A stretch of 64,000 nt of DNA from Rhodospirillales bacterium (lineage in GTDB: Bacteria > Pseudomonadota > Alphaproteobacteria > Rhodospirillales > UBA2165), in the NCBI GenBank assembly GCA_965207535.1, contig CBDBMR010000011.1:78276-142275 (forward strand). Reading direction: 5' to 3'. Shown here one piece after another: positions 8,415-39,811 of the stretch. The stretch's first letter is position 1, and the number at the start of each line of letters is the position of its first letter. Both the position numbers and the translations under genes were made by a program. The notes under the pieces were generated by a model. It was not told the DNA's origin, made no database searches, and saw only the letters and a program-made list of their open reading frames with translations.

Positions 8415-8517
8415 CGTGGCTCCGGGTTCGGCTGGCTGGGAGACGGTGAAGGTCGAATTCGGCGCTCTTATTGTCCGGCGGCGCGGCAACGTCAAGCACT
8501 ACTGAAAGACCAGCCGC

Positions 8518-9558
8518 CTACATGGTCTCCAATGCCGGCATGATGTCGGATGCAAACCGCTGCATGGACTCCAAGGCATGTCCGTGGGCGATGTCGCCGA
8601 AGTAGAAACCTAGGATCATGTAGTTGAGGCCGAGCGCTTCGGCATGGGCCGCGAGGGTCTCCTTGACCGTCTCGGCCGTCCCGACGACCACCGACCCCCG
8701 CTGCTGCGCTTCGGCGAGTGTCGGCGGAATGAATTGGGCGATGTTCGGACCCGGCACCTTGTTGACCCGCCAGAGTTTCGTCAGGCTCGCCTCCCAAGCC
8801 TGGTAGGCGGGCTCGGCCCGCTTCAGCGCTTCGTCCTCGGTCTCGGCGATCACAAGATGCCGCATGATGCCGACCGCCGCGCCCTCCTTGAAACCGCCGT
8901 CACCGCCGTCACCCGGCCGGCCGCGCTTCGCCAGCGCCTCCTTGAACGACTCGACCCCGGGCCGGGCGAATTCGACACCGCCCAAGGTAACGAAGTGATA
9001 GCCGTTCTCGCCGCCGAATTGCCCGCCTTCGGCGTGGTTGGTCGGATACCAGATCGGCGGGTGGCGTTTTTGCAGGGGCCTCAGCTCCATGGGCACATCG
9101 ACGTACGAATAGTTGTCGCCTTGATGATCGAGCACGTCATGGGACAATCCGTAAACCACCGCTTCGAGGCACTCCCGAAAGATGGGCCGAGACGTGTCCG
9201 GATCCACATCGTGAAATTTGAGTTCGAAGGGCGACACGCCGCGCCCCACGCCGACATCGAGCCGCCCGTGGCTGAGGTGATCGAGAATGCAAATCTCCTC
9301 GATCAGGCGAAGGGGCGTATAGAGCGGCAGAAGGTAGCACAGCGGACCGAGCCGGATGTTTTTGGTCGCCCGGGCTATCGCGCCCAGATAGACGCCCGGC
9401 ACCGGCACCATGTTCAGCGGCGTCGCATGGTGCTCGGCAACGTGATAGCAGTAGAAACCGGCTTCATCGGCGGCGGAAACAAACTCGAGCCGCTCATCGA
9501 ACTCCTGAGCCAGCGGACGATTGTTGACGTCCACGTGATCGAATAGTCCGAATTTCAT
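8518..9558 (-). CDS. LLM-class (luciferase-like) flavin-dependent oxidoreductase
   Basis: 346-aa ORF beginning MKFGLFDHVDV..., with AEHH...LGPLCYLLPLYTPLRLIEEICILDHLSHGRLDVGVGRG, typical of the luciferase-like monooxygenase family. Confidence 0.8.
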   Translation of the reverse strand: MKFGLFDHVDVNNRPLAQEFDERLEFVSAADEAGFYCYHVAEHHATPLNMVPVPGVYLGAIARATKNIRLGPLCYLLPLYTPLRLIEEICILDHLSHGRLDVGVGRGVSPFELKFHDVDPDTSRPIFRECLEAVVYGLSHDVLDHQGDNYSYVDVPMELRPLQKRHPPIWYPTNHAEGGQFGGENGYHFVTLGGVEFARPGVESFKEALAKRGRPGDGGDGGFKEGAAVGIMRHLVIAETEDEALKRAEPAYQAWEASLTKLWRVNKVPGPNIAQFIPPTLAEAQQRGSVVVGTAETVKETLAAHAEALGLNYMILGFYFGDIAHGHALESMQRFASDIMPALETM

Positions 9559-25088: not shown

Positions 25089-26342
25089 ATGACCGGCAGC
25101 TTGCCGCCATTTCATATTGACGTCTGCGATACCGCCCGGCGGGAGCCGGGCATGATGGTGTTCAACGTTCGGCCCGGCGGCCGGGCCGACAATACGGTCG
25201 GCAGCGGATGGCTGCTGGGCGTCGACCAGCGGGGCGACATCGCGCTCAATTACTCGGGCGGTGAGCCTGTACAGGACAATCGGCGCCTGCCGAACGGCAA
25301 TGTCCTCTTCTCCGAGACCGGCATCGGGCGAATTTACGAAATGACCCGGGGCGGCGAAATCGTCCGTCACTGGTACGTCACCGGAAAATGGCGGGACAAG
25401 GAGCCGCCGGTCGGCGGCATCCCCATCGATCTTTACCTCACCCATCACGCCATCAACATGCTGGGCAACGGCAACCTGCTTCTGATGTCCGCCGAGGTCC
25501 GAACTTTCGACGACTGGCCGGGCAGCGAAACGGATCCCGGCGCGCCGCCTGAGACCGCGAACGTGGTCGGCGACATAATTTGCGAGGTAACCCCCGACGG
25601 CGCCGTCATCAATCGATGGCGCATCCTGGATATGCTGGATCCCTACCGGATGTGCTACGGCTCCCGGTCGGGCTACTGGCGCAGCCGCGGCTTCGCCGAT
25701 TCCTTCGATTGGTGCCATGGCAACGCCACCGCCGAGGATCCCAAGGACGGCGGCATTCTCGTCTCCCTTCGGACCCAGGACTGCATCATCAAATTCGACC
25801 GGGCCTCGGGCGGCCTCATGTGGATTCTCGGCACCCACGACAATTGGCGGCCGCCGTGGTCCGAAAATCTGCTCAAGCCCGTCGGCGATGTGGGCTGGCA
25901 GTTCCATCAGCACGACTGCTCGGTGACGCCGTCGGGCACGGTCATGTGTTTCGACAACGGGAACTTCCGGGCAACGCCGTTCAATCCCGGTATCCCGGCG
26001 GAAGAAAATACCAGCCGCGTGGTCGAGTTTCGCATCGACGAAGACGCCATGACCATCGAACAGGTCTGGTCCTATGGCGATGCGCCCGGCGAGCGGCTTT
26101 ACGCCACCTACCAGTGCGGCGCCTGCCGGTTGCCCGAGACGGGCAACACGTTCATCACCTACGGCGGGATCGTCACCAAGGACGGCGTTCCCCATATGGA
26201 TGTCGAGGCCGGATTTTGCCGGGCCCGGCTGATCGAAGTCACGCCGGACAAGGAAATCGTCTTCGACATGTGGATCGAGGATACCGGATCCGACCCGATG
26301 CCGCTCTCGGCGTTTCGCGCCGAGCATTTCCCGGAGGCGTAG
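25089..26342 (+). CDS. Arylsulfotransferase (ASST)-like beta-propeller protein
   Basis: The start is set at the ATG at 25089 (MTGSLPPF), because the upstream part of the track ORF overlaps the dioxygenase. Repeated NGN(L/V) propeller-like motifs appear. The family call is moderate. Confidence 0.6.
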   Translation: MTGSLPPFHIDVCDTARREPGMMVFNVRPGGRADNTVGSGWLLGVDQRGDIALNYSGGEPVQDNRRLPNGNVLFSETGIGRIYEMTRGGEIVRHWYVTGKWRDKEPPVGGIPIDLYLTHHAINMLGNGNLLLMSAEVRTFDDWPGSETDPGAPPETANVVGDIICEVTPDGAVINRWRILDMLDPYRMCYGSRSGYWRSRGFADSFDWCHGNATAEDPKDGGILVSLRTQDCIIKFDRASGGLMWILGTHDNWRPPWSENLLKPVGDVGWQFHQHDCSVTPSGTVMCFDNGNFRATPFNPGIPAEENTSRVVEFRIDEDAMTIEQVWSYGDAPGERLYATYQCGACRLPETGNTFITYGGIVTKDGVPHMDVEAGFCRARLIEVTPDKEIVFDMWIEDTGSDPMPLSAFRAEHFPEA

Positions 26343-26353
26343 CCCCATCGTGT

Positions 26354-26602
26354 TCCCTCTCCCCACCAATTCCCTCCCCAAAACCGGTCCCTCTCCCCTG
26401 GAGGGAGAGGGATGCGAAGATAAGGTCATTCCCCGCCGGGGATTGACCGACTTGGCGGGCGGGAGCCCGGCTTAGCCATGCCTGTCCTCCGGCCAGCGAA
26501 GCTGGTCCGGTGGGCTGGGTGAGGGGGAGTTTTCGTTTCACCCCCACCCTGGTCAATTCCCTGTGGGAAATGACCGACCTCCCCCTTCAAGGTGGAGGGG
26601 AA
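26354..26602. repeat. G/C-rich hairpin repeat cluster, locus C
   Basis: CCCTCTCCC-CTGGA-GGGAGAGGG (26389-26411) is a perfect 9-bp stem. Also present: a GGGTGAGGGGG...CCCCCACCC hairpin and TCCCC-GCC-GGGGA. Confidence 0.75.
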
Positions 26603-26767
26603 TTGGTTTGGGCGTCCGCACGGGCCCCCTTGGCGCAATTCGGAAGCCCTTTCGCTTTCAGGACTAACGATGTGTCCGGAAATGCATGAAAGTAGTAGGT
26701 GCATTGAGCCAACCGGACCGGAGCAAGCGGCTTGTCGCGTGGCGTCGGCCGCCTGCTCCGGCGCCGG

Positions 26768-26801
26768 ATTGCTCCCGATAGCTGTTGCTATCGCGCGTAA
26801 T
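26768..26801. other. lox-like 34-bp recombination site (13-bp arm / 8-bp spacer / 13-bp arm), left copy
   Basis: ATTGCTCCCGATA-GCTGTTGC-TATCGCGCGTAAT. It matches the reverse complement of the site at 28119-28152 at 31 of 34 positions. Confidence 0.6.
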
Positions 26802-27097
26802 ATTGTCAAGACCGCGCTCGCACCGGCAGTGCGCCGCGCCTGCGGCGGGGACCGATAGCCCGCCTCCGACCACCGGCAACCCGTTGAACTTCCGCCACTT
26901 TTCCGGGAGCGGCCGACGCATGCCGGGCGATGCCGCCGGGACGCCGGACCCACCGTCCGTGCCGAATATTACTCCCGATAGCATTTTATGAATCCGCGCC
27001 CTTGACGCCCGCAAGGACCGGATTCGGTTGCCCGTGCGCCGCCACGGCCGCCCCGCCATTATAACCCGGCAGCCCCGTCCGTCCAATCCGGCGCGGC

Positions 27098-28081
27098 TCA
27101 GGTCCGTCCCTGCATCCGCGCCAACTGCGCCGCGCCGCTGCGCCGCGCCAGCAACCGCTCGCCGTAGCGGTTCACCATCGCGGTGGACTTCCACCGCCCG
27201 GCATGGAGGATCGCCGGCAGCTCAATGCCGGCGGCGACCATGTCCTGGGCCGCGCCGACGCGCGCCGAGTGCCCAGACAGGCCCCCCGCCACTGTGTCCG
27301 GCAATCCGGCGTCCCGCGCCATCGCCTTGAAGATGCGCGGCACCTGGCTCGGGTCGAGCCCCTCGCCGATCCGCCCGCCCTTGCCGACCGAACGAAACAG
27401 CCGCCCGTCCTCGATCCCGCCCCGGTCGAGCCACAGGCGAACCAGCCGGACCGTGTCCGGGCCGACCCAAACGATCTCGCCCGCACCCTCGCCGTCGGTC
27501 TTGGAGCGGCGCACTAGAAGGCTGCCGTCGCCCGGCAATTCTTCAAGCAGATCAATGACTTGCAGTGATATCAGTTCAGTCCGCCGAAGCATCGCGTCGT
27601 AGGCGACGGCAAGCAGCGCCCGGTTACGGTCGTCGATCAGCCTGTCGCCCGCGGCCTCCAGCAAGCGCCGGCGCAGCGGCCAGGTCAGTCCCGCCGCCTG
27701 GTCCTGGCGGCGGCCCTTCCTGCGGTGCATGCGCTTGAGCGCAAGCTGCACCGGTGGACTTCCGAGGGGCTTCTCCAGCCCGAGGGCCCGCTGGGCGATG
27801 TCGATGCTGGTCACGTAACGGCGCACCGTGGCCGGCGCCCTGACCTCCGCCTTGGCGTCGACGAAGGCGGCAACGGTCTCGGGGCTGGCCGGCAGCGCCC
27901 TTTCCCCGCGCTCGGCGCACCACTTGGCGTAGATGGCGAGATCGGACTTGAGCGCCCGTTCGGTGTTGCTCGAGAATGCGCCGCTCGCTGCTTGCACGAA
28001 CTGTTGGAGCCGCTTCGCGAGCGCCGGTGCGCGTTCCGCTCCCGGCTCCCCACGGGGGTCGAACGGGGGTTCGAGATACAT
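27098..28081 (-). CDS. Cre-like tyrosine site-specific recombinase
   Basis: SGHSARVGAAQDMVAAGIELPAILHAGRWKSTAMVNRYGE resembles Cre SGHSARVGAARDMARAGVSIPEIMQAGGWTNVNIVMNYIR. DDRNRALLAVAYDAMLRRTELISLQVIDL resembles Cre DIRNLAFLGIAYNTLLRIAEIARIRVKDI. The start is set at MYLEPPF (28081). Confidence 0.85.
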   Translation of the reverse strand: MYLEPPFDPRGEPGAERAPALAKRLQQFVQAASGAFSSNTERALKSDLAIYAKWCAERGERALPASPETVAAFVDAKAEVRAPATVRRYVTSIDIAQRALGLEKPLGSPPVQLALKRMHRRKGRRQDQAAGLTWPLRRRLLEAAGDRLIDDRNRALLAVAYDAMLRRTELISLQVIDLLEELPGDGSLLVRRSKTDGEGAGEIVWVGPDTVRLVRLWLDRGGIEDGRLFRSVGKGGRIGEGLDPSQVPRIFKAMARDAGLPDTVAGGLSGHSARVGAAQDMVAAGIELPAILHAGRWKSTAMVNRYGERLLARRSGAAQLARMQGRT

Positions 28082-28118
28082 GTGCGCGCCTCCGGTTCGT
28101 CCAATCGCGAGCCCGCAG

Positions 28119-28152
28119 ATTACGCGCGATAGCAACAGTTATCGCGCGCAAT
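28119..28152. other. lox-like 34-bp recombination site, right copy (inverted relative to the left copy)
   Basis: ATTACGCGCGATA-GCAACAGT-TATCGCGCGCAAT. The arms match each other's reverse complement at 12 of 13 positions. The site lies 38 nt upstream of the recombinase start codon. Confidence 0.6.
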
Positions 28153-28319
28153 ACGGATGCAGGTGGAGTCGGATGACGCGGGATGTCACGGTCGGTTCAG
28201 CGGCGCCTCGGCGTGACAGTCGGGCGCATCTCTGCATACCGCAACTCCTGCGTAGGCTTGCGCCGTCGCCCGGGTTTGCTGCATGCCAATTGTACCTTAA
28301 ACGGAGACAACCCGACAAC

Positions 28320-28652
28320 ATGCTGGCACGGGCCGCGGTCCGTTTCGGGTGCGCTGTGGGGCACGCTCTGGCTGTCCTTGCGCTGGCGGTCGGGCTCGCC
28401 GGGGCGGCGCAGGCGCAGACGGAGCCATGCAGCTCAAACACCGGGAACGAGCACGGGGTCATGTGCATAGAACCGGCGACCTCCGATAGGGATATCAACA
28501 TCCGGCAGGGCGGCACCGAGATTTCGATCACCGGGGGTGGGCTGAACGGCCACCACGGCGTTTACACGCTCGGCGGCTCGGTCGGGGCGGGCGGTCTGGG
28601 TTCCGACGACACGTCCTCTTCCGCCCGCCTCGAAGCGCGCATCGGGTTCTGA
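28320..28652 (+). CDS. Hypothetical small secreted Gly-rich protein
   Basis: Signal-peptide-like N-terminus (MLARAAVRFGCAVGHALAVLALAVGLAGAAQA) followed by Gly-rich repeats. It could be a gene fragment. Confidence 0.35.
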   Translation: MLARAAVRFGCAVGHALAVLALAVGLAGAAQAQTEPCSSNTGNEHGVMCIEPATSDRDINIRQGGTEISITGGGLNGHHGVYTLGGSVGAGGLGSDDTSSSARLEARIGF

Positions 28653-28685
28653 CGGCATGCGTGCCGGACGGGCGGTTCCCCTAAA

Positions 28686-28812
28686 CCCTCCCCGTGGAGA
28701 AGCGGGGGGACGGTCAGGGTGGGGGGTATGGCGTGAACCTGACATACCCCCCACCCTCGACGCCCGGCCGGTTGCCGCGTCGTGTCCCCTCTCTCCTGGA
28801 GGGAGAGGGAGA
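28686..28812. repeat. G/C-rich hairpin repeat cluster, locus D
   Basis: Perfect 15-bp stem: AGGGTGGGGGGTATG (28716-28730) with CATACCCCCCACCCT (28743-28757). Also an imperfect CCCTCTC...GAGAGGG hairpin. Positions 28744-28777 are nearly identical to 4544-4578. Confidence 0.8.
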
Positions 28813-28919
28813 AGGGGCTTGCCGTGCGTTCCCTTGTTGCAGGCCGCACCTCGTCGGGGAGCGCGCCTTTTAGGTGGAACTTTTGGGCGCACTTCCCGCT
28901 TTTCAGGAAAGAGAGAAAG

Positions 28920-29267
28920 ATGATTGTGAAAATGCCGGACCTGACCCGGGACGATGGACGCGATTTCCTGGTCTCGCTGAAACCCGACCAGGTCATCATT
29001 CAGCCGACCGGCCTGAACGCAAGGCTGCTGGACTGCTATCGAGACGCTTTCGCCGATGACTTCTGTTTTGAACTGTTTGGCGAGACGGAGGAAGTCATGG
29101 GGAATTGGATTTTCGGAAGCCGGCATTCCTGCCGGTCCTGTATTACCTATTTCATTTCCAGCCGGATAGCGGATGTGAAGGAACAGGAAAATATATTCGG
29201 TATTCTGGAAAGCTATGATTGGGCGGAACGGCTGGAAATAAATTTACCGGTAGTGGCGCGGCAATAG
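28920..29267 (+). CDS. Hypothetical protein (lower-GC ORF)
   Basis: 115-aa ORF with a purine-rich RBS (GAAAGAGAGAAAG). GC content is visibly lower than in neighbouring genes. I recognise no family. Confidence 0.4.
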   Translation: MIVKMPDLTRDDGRDFLVSLKPDQVIIQPTGLNARLLDCYRDAFADDFCFELFGETEEVMGNWIFGSRHSCRSCITYFISSRIADVKEQENIFGILESYDWAERLEINLPVVARQ

Positions 29268-29390
29268 CCATGCCGCTCCGTGGCGCGTTCCAGATGGACT
29301 ACGTCATACCCCGGCGCAAGTCCGGGGTATCCAGTGAACGACCCCCTCCCCTTGCCGCCACCCGCGCACGGGCTAAATGAATAGGCATCT

Positions 29391-29421
29391 GCCGCCCTCA
29401 CCGGGGCGGCGTTTTGCATTT
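29391..29421 (+). terminator. Candidate Rho-independent terminator
   Basis: GCCGCCC-TCACCG-GGGCGGC followed by GTTTTGCATTT. Confidence 0.4.
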
Positions 29422-29740
29422 GGAGGGGGAGCTATGCATTTTTGTACGAACTGTTTGGGGGGCACCTCCCAAACGGAGGCCAATAAATGTCCATGAATGC
29501 CTATAAATGCCTATACCGGCGAAAATAGCCAACTTGGAAAATATTTATAAATTATGGCATTTCAACATCTTACCGATATGCGCCCAGTGCATGGCTCGCG
29601 CCCTCCCACGCCCCTGGGATTGCGGCCGCGGAGGACAGGCGAATTTCGCCCAATATCAGCGATAGCAAATGGGCATATATGAGCCGCCCGCCGGGCGCGC
29701 TACATGTCGGCAAATCATGACCCCTGGAGGCCCCCCGCTC

Positions 29741-39735: not shown

Positions 39736-39811
39736 TGGTGGGTGCTATAGGACTCGAACCTATGACCCGCTGCTTAAAAGGCAGCTGCTCTACCACCTGA
39801 GCTAAGCACCC
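39736..39811 (-). tRNA. tRNA-Lys (anticodon UUU)
   Basis: The reverse complement reads GGGTGCTTAGCTCAGGTGGTAGAGCAGCTGCCTTTTAAGCAGCGGGTCATAGGTTCGAGTCCTATAGCACCCACCA. It folds with a 7-bp acceptor stem, a GCTGC/GCAGC anticodon stem, a CUUUUAA loop, a GGTTCGAGTCC T-arm and an encoded CCA. Confidence 0.9.

Follow-up and report, generated by a model that had tools for sequence, protein, structure and literature searches.

Flp, the enzyme of the yeast 2-micron plasmid, is a simple tyrosine recombinase whose own gene is flanked by inverted 13-8-13 sites (two 13-bp arms around an 8-bp spacer) and is inverted by it. Natural FRT is accompanied by an adjacent third 13-bp element, the sites lie inside 599-bp repeats, and the inversion serves copy-number amplification. 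Cre cuts 6 bp apart within the 8-bp spacer of loxP; partner sites need identical cores, and the flanking spacer bases are not exchanged. Bacterial switches of the fimS type use repeats of ~9 bp, host accessory proteins and enzymes that are not Cre-type, and the flagellar switch of Salmonella, Hin/hix, is run by a serine recombinase that requires Fis and an enhancer to act on hix sites of 26 bp. In E. coli, tyrosine recombinases (FimB/FimE, IpuA/IpuB) invert the promoter elements fimS, hyxS and ipuS, the last of which controls the autotransporter UpaE; the recombinase genes are found near the short element or far from it, and several recombinases serve one switch (PMC6083910). The 'epigenetic invertons' of type I restriction-modification systems with PsrA/CreX, found in host-associated bacteria, often have the tyrosine invertase gene inside the inverton and shuffle hsdS coding segments via intragenic repeats (PMC7672463). 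For Cre-type enzymes, target prediction has assumed that a lox-like site lies less than 1 kb from the gene (PMC10250229). Here we analyse a stretch of 64,000 nt from a Rhodospirillales bacterium (assembly GCA_965207535.1, contig CBDBMR010000011.1, positions 78,276 to 142,275 of the forward strand; hereafter the window), in which a Cre-type recombinase gene is enclosed by two inverted lox-type sites. On the evidence of sequence comparisons, this 1.4-kb cassette is probably a self-contained Cre-type inversion switch for the adjacent surface-protein gene, equipped with its own recombinase and a putative outward promoter.

Two inverted lox-type sites around a Cre-type recombinase gene

The distal site D (26768–26801, called L in a preliminary description of this DNA) reads ATTGCTCCCGATA-GCTGTTGC-TATCGCGCGTAAT, with the outer arm at 26768–26780, the 8-bp spacer (G-CTGTTG-C) at 26781–26788 and the inner arm at 26789–26801. 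The proximal site P (28119–28152, previously R) reads ATTACGCGCGATA-GCAACAGT-TATCGCGCGCAAT and consists of an inner arm (28119–28131), a spacer (28132–28139) and an outer arm (28140–28152); from the outer towards the inner arm, it reads ATTGCGCGCGATA-A-CTGTTG-C-TATCGCGCGTAAT. Between the two lies a solitary half-site, H (26968–26980), with the sequence ATTACTCCCGATA; its orientation is that of the inner arm of P, and an A-rich tract precedes it. The coordinates and letters given for these three elements in the preliminary description agree with the sequence base for base. Its claim that the sites are inverted, with the reverse complement of P matching D at 31 of 34 positions, was borne out by a repeat search, in which they formed the longest inverted repeat of the region, 38 nt long and 89% complementary across an interval of 1317 nt. 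The layout with 13-bp inverted arms is also present as described, but the complementarity between the arms is imperfect, extending to 10 of 13 positions in D and 12 of 13 in P. The degenerate half-site ATTRCKCSCGATA has five exact matches in the whole window, against 0.01 expected from shuffled sequences; all five fall inside the 1.4 kb between 26768 and 28152 and correspond to the four arms and H. Both D and P thus combine the 13-bp inverted arms, the 8-bp asymmetric spacer and the proximity to a recombinase gene that characterize a lox-type site, and together they bound a segment within which a site-specific recombinase is encoded, as in an inverton. We regard H as a candidate accessory binding site for the recombinase.

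The enclosed gene (27098–28081, minus strand) is intact and encodes a tyrosine recombinase of 327 amino acids, which matches the Pfam family Phage_integrase (PF00589) with an E-value of 5.6e-12. Its description as Cre-like was confirmed by comparison with solved structures: residues 23–312, nearly the full length, matched 17 Cre/Tre chains (Cre and its engineered derivatives) with E-values of 2.5e-26 to 2.5e-24, whereas the next structural match, XerD, had an E-value of 0.011. All NCBIfam models of Xer proteins scored far under their cut-offs. The residues R, K, H, R, W and Y that align with R173, K201, H289, R292, W315 and Y324 of Cre are, in our own placement, presumably their counterparts. 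Site P ends 37 nt before the ATG of the gene, rather than the 38 nt given earlier. Among the best 120 homologues, identity to the window protein was 79–100% and 118 proteins were exactly 327 amino acids long. The recombinase is under purifying selection, with a ratio of nonsynonymous to synonymous substitution rates (dN/dS) of 0.13–0.36, and copies inside one genome are 92–98.5% identical.

The nearest cultivated relatives of the recombinase are plasmid-borne and ~49% identical (none above 49% in a plasmid search), and a scan of viral contigs found no relative. The first palindrome search around two of the plasmid relatives found nothing; a later motif search detected a single GATA-N8-TATC site in one of them, Methylobacterium radiotolerans plasmid pMRAD01 (locus L065, 2366–2399; 49% identity). 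This site ends 38 nt ahead of the start codon, as P does in the family described here, and its spacer has the opposite polarity. It possibly represents an ancestral single-site state. Since the plasmid relative has a single site, the inverted second site may be a derived feature.

Conservation of the layout and covariation of the spacers

A scan of species-representative genomes yielded 39 loci with related recombinases, and a scan of metagenomes yielded 12 more. In what follows, WIN denotes the window locus, and L001, L004 and so on denote the relative loci. The species-representative loci come from uncultivated Rhodospirillales, Rhodobacterales, other Alphaproteobacteria and Pseudomonadales, so that the family is spread over several orders, at 60–89% identity. 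Many homologues lie on contigs of 0.5 to 9 Mb. The preliminary description had proposed looking in related genomes for 13-8-13 sites that accompany homologous recombinases; they do so in more than 30 loci from uncultivated Alpha- and Gammaproteobacteria. With the gene drawn on the plus strand, the common layout in nearly all loci is P, which ends 37–38 nt before the start codon, followed by the gene, H and D. In nearly all of them, H lies ~130 nt past the recombinase stop codon and is oriented like the inner arm of P. Over the 41 distal-type sites for which offsets were counted, a half-site was found upstream of 37, at a distance of 170–180 nt in 29 and of 177–179 nt in 27. The arm sequences vary by lineage (for example ATTACGCGCGATA, ATTACTCCCGATA, ATTGCGCTCGATA and TTTATGCGCGATA), and the copies inside one element tend to be alike. 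Truncated members of the family also occur (L033 and L035–L039).

Loci L041 and L021 depart from the common layout. In L041, the position of H holds a full site, and two inverted full sites with matching cores enclose just a 323-bp segment that bears TTGACA at one end and sits between the recombinase gene and an exported gene carrying a (CCTG)n tract. By analogy, this is the layout of a classical inverton such as fimS. In L021, two proximal-type sites that share one spacer, ACTGTTGT, stand in tandem (2692–2725 and 2739–2772) upstream of one recombinase gene, and the distal site is 826 nt past the stop codon, compared with the usual ~300 nt.

A strong indication that P and D recombine comes from their spacers, which were compared in the 32 elements with both sites, reading each spacer from the outer arm inwards. 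Spacer positions 2–8 were identical between P and D in all 32 elements. Nine different 6-bp cores occur among these elements (CTGTCG, CTGTTG, CTATTA, CTATCG, CTGTCA, CTTTCA, CTGTTA, CTGTAT and CTGTGA), and random re-pairing of the sites gave a mean of 9.5 and a maximum of 18 core matches. Position 1, beside the outer arm, agreed between P and D in just 15 elements; it was A in 28 of the 32 on the side of the surface-protein gene and G in 21 on the other side. In a further relative, whose proximal site is degenerate, both sites have the core CTCTTA. A matching core next to a free flanking base is what recombination between P and D would be expected to leave behind, either directly or by homogenizing the two sites. 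It would not be predicted if the sites were operators or merely shared a common ancestry as the ends of a transposon. Inversion between P and D is therefore strongly suggested by the covariation of the sequences, and since all cores are asymmetric and the sites are inverted, the product must be inversion and not excision.

One assembled genome harbours ~10 copies of the element, two of them partial (ten loci: L006, L008, L011, L012, L014, L019, L028, L033, L034 and L036), and these ten have five spacer cores. Some cores are common to copies on one contig. Recombination between copies that share a core could yield large chromosomal rearrangements.

Proposed switch, neighbouring genes and alternative explanations

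From the layout we infer how the switch would operate. The recombinase would occupy all four 13-bp arms of the inverted 34-bp sites D and P, with H as a probable accessory contact, and strand exchange would take place within the identical spacer core CTGTTG. The 1317-bp segment would then flip, carrying with it the recombinase gene and an outward promoter. The candidate -35 element of this promoter is a conserved TTGACA (26804–26809, minus strand), which lies 2 nt inside the inner arm of D and points out of the cassette; the -10 element would be located in the spacer. Exact TTGACA at the 2-nt offset was found at 31 of the 41 distal-type sites and, shifted by 1 nt, at 3 more. In the observed orientation, the promoter end faces a strong stem-loop (26718–26761, minus strand), which would correspond to the OFF state. 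This stem-loop, detected both as an inverted repeat and by RNA folding, lies directly outside D, and the minus strand of 26690–26770 folds with -43 kcal/mol (z -4.25). Inspection of the alignment by eye, without folding, revealed G+C-rich hairpin-like sequences at the same place in other relatives. The stem-loop is a candidate terminator or 'parking' hairpin for transcription that leaves the cassette in its present orientation.

After inversion, the promoter would lie ~45 nt upstream of the ATG at 28173 and would drive the surface-protein gene, which would be the ON state. Because the start codon of that gene is ~21 nt from the site, its promoter must be in or beyond the site. Inversion would set TTGACA-AT-inner arm-spacer-outer arm before the surface gene, and a 17-nt gap would place the -10 element on positions 3–8 of the spacer of the joined site. 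With A at position 1 on the surface-gene side and G on the other side, the hexamer would read NACAGT at the surface gene and NACAGC when parked, and the junction would be TTGACA-N17-NACAGT. The inverted state would be recognizable by the junctions ...GGCGCCGG + site + CTGCGGGCTCGCGATTGG... and ...GCGGTCTTGACAAT + site + ACGGATGCAGGTGGAG.... The distance of ~178 nt between H and D amounts to about 17 helical turns, which may allow a recombinase bound at H to contact the distal synapse.

Two other elements were noted in the non-coding DNA of the cassette. A conserved block, TTCAACGGGTT (26878–26888, minus strand), was recognized in the alignment consensus between H and D. The promoter scan also returned a TGGACG-N16-TATAAT match just past the recombinase stop codon (27058–27085, minus strand). 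We rejected it as the promoter of the switch, as its TATGAT/TATAAT block is kept in close relatives only and is flanked by complementary G+C runs; it is more likely the loop of a hairpin that follows the gene. At the 5' end of the recombinase gene, i.e. in the DNA that faces the surface gene as observed, nothing promoter-like was found.

The gene next to P in the window had been described as a small secreted-protein gene starting at 28320. A signal peptide indeed begins there, but the open reading frame extends back to an ATG at 28173, 21 nt from site P, and the gene (28173–28652, plus strand, 159 codons) is a truncated remnant of an autotransporter-like surface-protein gene, composed of an N-terminal extension, the signal peptide and then ~80 residues of passenger domain. 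A Pfam search of the remnant itself gave no match. Its leader resembles that of L023, and its mature part resembles the N-terminus of the L001 protein (>1250 amino acids); L001 is the orthologous locus of a related genome, with a flank 92% identical to the window. In our own reading of the alignment, many of the differences between the WIN and L023 leaders are synonymous, so the leader looks translated, like an extended autotransporter signal region. A ribosome-binding-like motif, GGTGGAG, lies between P and the ATG (28162–28168, plus strand) and recurs beside the outer arm in other relatives. There, an open reading frame (ORF) with a signal peptide leaves the proximal site outward, its start codon ~21 nt from the outer arm and after the GGTGGAG motif; in most genome loci these ORFs have ~300 to >1300 codons, and many run off the locus. 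Pfam domains were identified in the neighbours of L022 (Autotransporter beta-domain) and L008 (Calx-beta and Cadherin-like domains). In L015, L025, L041 and L053, the 5' coding part of the neighbour contains (CCTG)n tracts of very different lengths, and L001 has ~4 copies of the unit. Judged from their sequence, such tracts are a classical signature of slipped-strand phase variation, which would form a second layer over the recombinase cassette. The Pfam domains, the long exported ORFs and the (CCTG)n tracts identify the genes adjacent to the cassette as surface or contingency genes.

That the cassette might be a self-encoded inversion switch, possibly with a promoter coupled to the gene next to it, was already proposed in the preliminary description and is favoured by the layout in more than 30 relatives, the matching cores, the TTGACA element and the surface-protein neighbours. 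Several observations, however, weigh against it. All of the ~31 intact loci have the same orientation, with the recombinase divergent from the surface gene. Locus L052 (ERZ26051807), which is 99% identical to the window, has the window's orientation, as does L001, and among the intact relatives both orientations were seen neither within one population nor among close strains. In L018, the usual distal flank abuts the proximal site at its outer arm. Inversion would produce such a junction, but this element is decayed: everything beyond the stop codon is lost, and an apparently convergent gene follows. Short contigs of the size of the cassette (1334–1375 nt) start and end in the sites. The breaks lie in the inner arms in L055–L057 (at one end only in L056), for L056 and L057 where the inter-site repeat stops being perfect, and only those of L054 and L058 fall at spacer position 1 or 2. 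These contig ends are ambiguous, as they may reflect heterogeneity caused by inversion or, equally, breaks made by the assembler at repeats. The candidate -10 element, AACAGT, fits the E. coli sigma-70 consensus at 3 of 6 positions, and the promoter scan called no promoter at this candidate in the spacer. Furthermore, the presumed target gene is truncated in the window. The output of the switch is thus probably vestigial here, even though the enzyme and the sites are intact. Finally, the higher G+C content of the cassette (see below) and the multi-copy character of the family indicate that some mobility or gene conversion operates too.

A 1286-bp segment that is in opposite orientation in L022 relative to L023 and L017 was considered as evidence for inversion and discarded, because the segment proved to be an unrelated insertion sequence bounded by terminal repeats of its own, TGACGT..TTATGTGTCAG (L022 5288–6573, inverted in L023 5282–6567 and L017 5275–5891). 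It sits in the non-coding segment of the cassette and, in two copies, marks a rearrangement that removed the distal site.

A more specific form of the proposed switch can be offered only tentatively, and as a whole we consider it rather doubtful. The elements may be autonomous Cre/lox modules, each adhesin locus (up to ~10 per genome) having its own recombinase and core and being partially insulated, much like engineered lox variants. The promoter would be split at the crossover, where the single base that is not exchanged (A on the adhesin side, G on the other) would complete a usable -10 element only in the ON state, and H, in phase at a distance of 17 turns, would determine directionality.

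The remaining probability lies mostly with variants in which the inversion is real and its output differs from that of the proposed switch: the cassette might toggle genes or RNAs on both sides, or mainly control the expression of the recombinase. We hold this to be rather unlikely. It would suit L004, which has surface-protein genes reading outward on both sides, the distal one autotransporter-like. It would also suit 16 relatives (L011 5328–6000 and 15 others) in which a conserved non-coding stretch of ~650 nt, rich in indels and hairpin-like sequences, extends beyond D and would be transcribed in the observed orientation; this stretch could be a long leader or an RNA transcribed from the outward promoter of the cassette. 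Because the recombinase gene starts just 37 nt from the site, its promoter must overlap P or lie outside it, a further point in favour of this variant. On the other hand, the window and several relatives have on the distal side just a hairpin and a convergent arylsulfotransferase gene. The window shares the ~650-nt stretch for ~80 nt at most, and in the stretch itself there was no Rfam match and no stable reading frame was seen. Rfam searches of the window and three relatives returned nothing relevant; the sole match in the window was a tRNA gene (39739–39811, minus strand) unrelated to the cassette.

Less likely still is a minimal transposon-like element that is moved by its tyrosine recombinase and has the two sites as its terminal inverted repeats, an alternative raised in the preliminary description. 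The cassette belongs to a family with ~10 copies in one genome, members in several orders at 60–89% identity, and truncated copies. Its G+C content (0.70–0.74 vs 0.63 in the surroundings) is consistent with a foreign origin, and the similarity among WIN, L001, L004, L005 and L024 ends close to both sites. The boundaries of the strain-variable DNA argue otherwise. For comparison we used the five other members of the 90% cluster of the arylsulfotransferase encoded at 25089–26342, which occur at six places, two of them with the same protein. The upstream gene order is kept at all six, and a sulfatase gene follows in the five where the contig continues. Five distinct related strains with both flanks lack an islet of 3.3 kb (26350–29637) that comprises the cassette, the remnant gene, REP-like (repetitive extragenic palindromic) palindromes and a low-G+C ORF. 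The gap in these strains is 254 to 1750 nt long and contains a recombinase in none; accordingly, the search at these six places for a flipped cassette at the same locus found no cassette at all. Similarity to the window stops at 26342–26349 on the left and resumes at 29638–29640 on the right (~29300 in L063), so that the edges of the islet are 418 nt and 1485 nt outside the 34-bp sites. In the multi-copy genome, the repeated unit likewise reaches ~400 nt beyond P and ~650 nt beyond D.

Neither presence and absence exactly at the repeats nor unrelated flanks between copies, as expected of a transposon, were found, and no empty site for the 1.4-kb unit was seen. Since the islet edges lie away from the sites and the copies share DNA beyond both, a minimal transposon is not supported at this locus. 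In addition, the neighbours are always of the same functional class, and visual inspection of junctions revealed no target-site duplication. By its established mechanism, conservative recombination between inverted sites cannot excise a circle, which we also count against the transposon. As the repeated unit extends past both sites, the copies look like a paralogous family of switch-plus-adhesin loci, whose likely routes of spread are duplication, gene conversion and the horizontal transfer of larger segments.

Other features of the islet concern its surroundings. A 23-nt palindrome, CCCTCTCCCCTGGAGGGAGAGGG, has its only two window copies at 26389–26411 and 28787–28809, bracketing the cassette and the remnant; short repeats near it recur in L001, L005 and L022, and the region looks REP-like. 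Further palindromes are located at 26424–26451 and 26551–26578. A stretch of low G+C content (28800–29700; 0.51–0.57 vs ~0.63 around) inside the islet holds an ORF of 115 amino acids (28920–29267), which is called as a gene in L052 too. In L059, from a strain without the cassette, a second copy of the last 180 nt of the arylsulfotransferase gene (the copy at 8489–8668) and a DUF2147 gene occupy the same intergenic hotspot, indicating that this intergenic spot is prone to rearrangement.

We consider it very improbable that no recombination takes place between the sites, i.e. that they are autoregulatory operators or leftovers of dimer resolution of the plasmid type (Cre/loxP, ResD/rfsF). The plasmid-borne nearest cultivated relatives, the single site of pMRAD01 38 nt before its gene and the overlap of P with the likely promoter region of the recombinase would all be explained. 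Operators, however, give no account of a second full inverted site 1.3 kb away or of asymmetric cores that match within each element and yet vary from one element to another. Dimer resolution in plasmids or phages relies on a single site per replicon, whereas here each gene has two inverted sites, the loci lie on contigs of 0.5 to 9 Mb with many per genome, and the scan of viral contigs found no relative. Least credible of all is an integron-like role of P as a docking site for the capture or exchange of surface-protein gene cassettes: differing surface-protein genes do abut the same site with a short shared leader, but no further lox-type site, such as an integron would have in the attC-like ends of the cassettes that follow attI, was found beyond the neighbouring genes in flanks of up to 4 kb, and the homologous leader and N-terminal coding region of the neighbours fit a paralogous family better than captured cassettes.

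Comparison with known recombination systems

The preliminary description did not recognize the arrangement as a described system. In part this holds: a literature search found no account of the present family, although the coverage of the search was limited, so that such an account may exist. In part it does not, as there are precedents in invertase genes that lie inside invertons (PMC7672463) and in the UpaE switch (PMC6083910).

The Cre-type systems, namely Cre/loxP of phage P1, Vika/vox, Dre/rox and those predicted in PMC10250229, are like the family described here in the protein family, the 34-bp 13-8-13 site located <1 kb from the gene and the need for a matching spacer core. The window family differs in having two inverted sites that bracket the gene and a solitary half-site. 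It is chromosomal, with many copies per genome beside adhesin genes, and no phage or plasmid context was found for it. Its presumed role is phase variation, unlike the cyclization or dimer resolution of the Cre-type systems.

If the proposed switch is confirmed, it would represent a native phase-variation role for Cre-type recombinases, a group whose other known uses are chiefly the maintenance of phages and plasmids and laboratory applications. The cassette would then be a compact inverton that needs just its own 1.4 kb, with the enzyme, two lox-type sites and a promoter. The nine natural cores and several arm variants, combined with recombinases that are 75–98% identical, provide a panel on how Cre-type enzymes read spacers and arms, and the family is possibly a source of orthogonal inversion tools. 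In that case, the findings point to large sets of adhesins in uncultivated Alpha- and Gammaproteobacteria, each adhesin with a switch of its own and some with a second layer based on tetranucleotide repeats.

Flp/FRT resembles the window family in that a self-inverting gene lies between inverted 13-8-13 sites and a third 13-bp element is present. It differs in belonging to a eukaryotic plasmid and in the position of the third element, which is adjacent to the site in FRT and ~178 nt away here; moreover, the proteins are not close relatives. Hin/hix is similar in that its invertible segment encodes the recombinase and also contains an outward promoter, and dissimilar in the class of the enzyme and in the sites. 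The closest functional analogues are fimS, hyxS and ipuS, in which a tyrosine recombinase likewise inverts a promoter that serves a surface structure, whereas the placement of the genes, the type of enzyme and the length of the repeats are different. The PsrA/CreX invertons resemble it in that the invertase gene often lies inside the inverted unit, but they have neither a lox-type 13-8-13 site nor a promoter switch. What distinguishes the family described here is its native lox architecture, the covariation of its spacers and the presence of one recombinase per locus.

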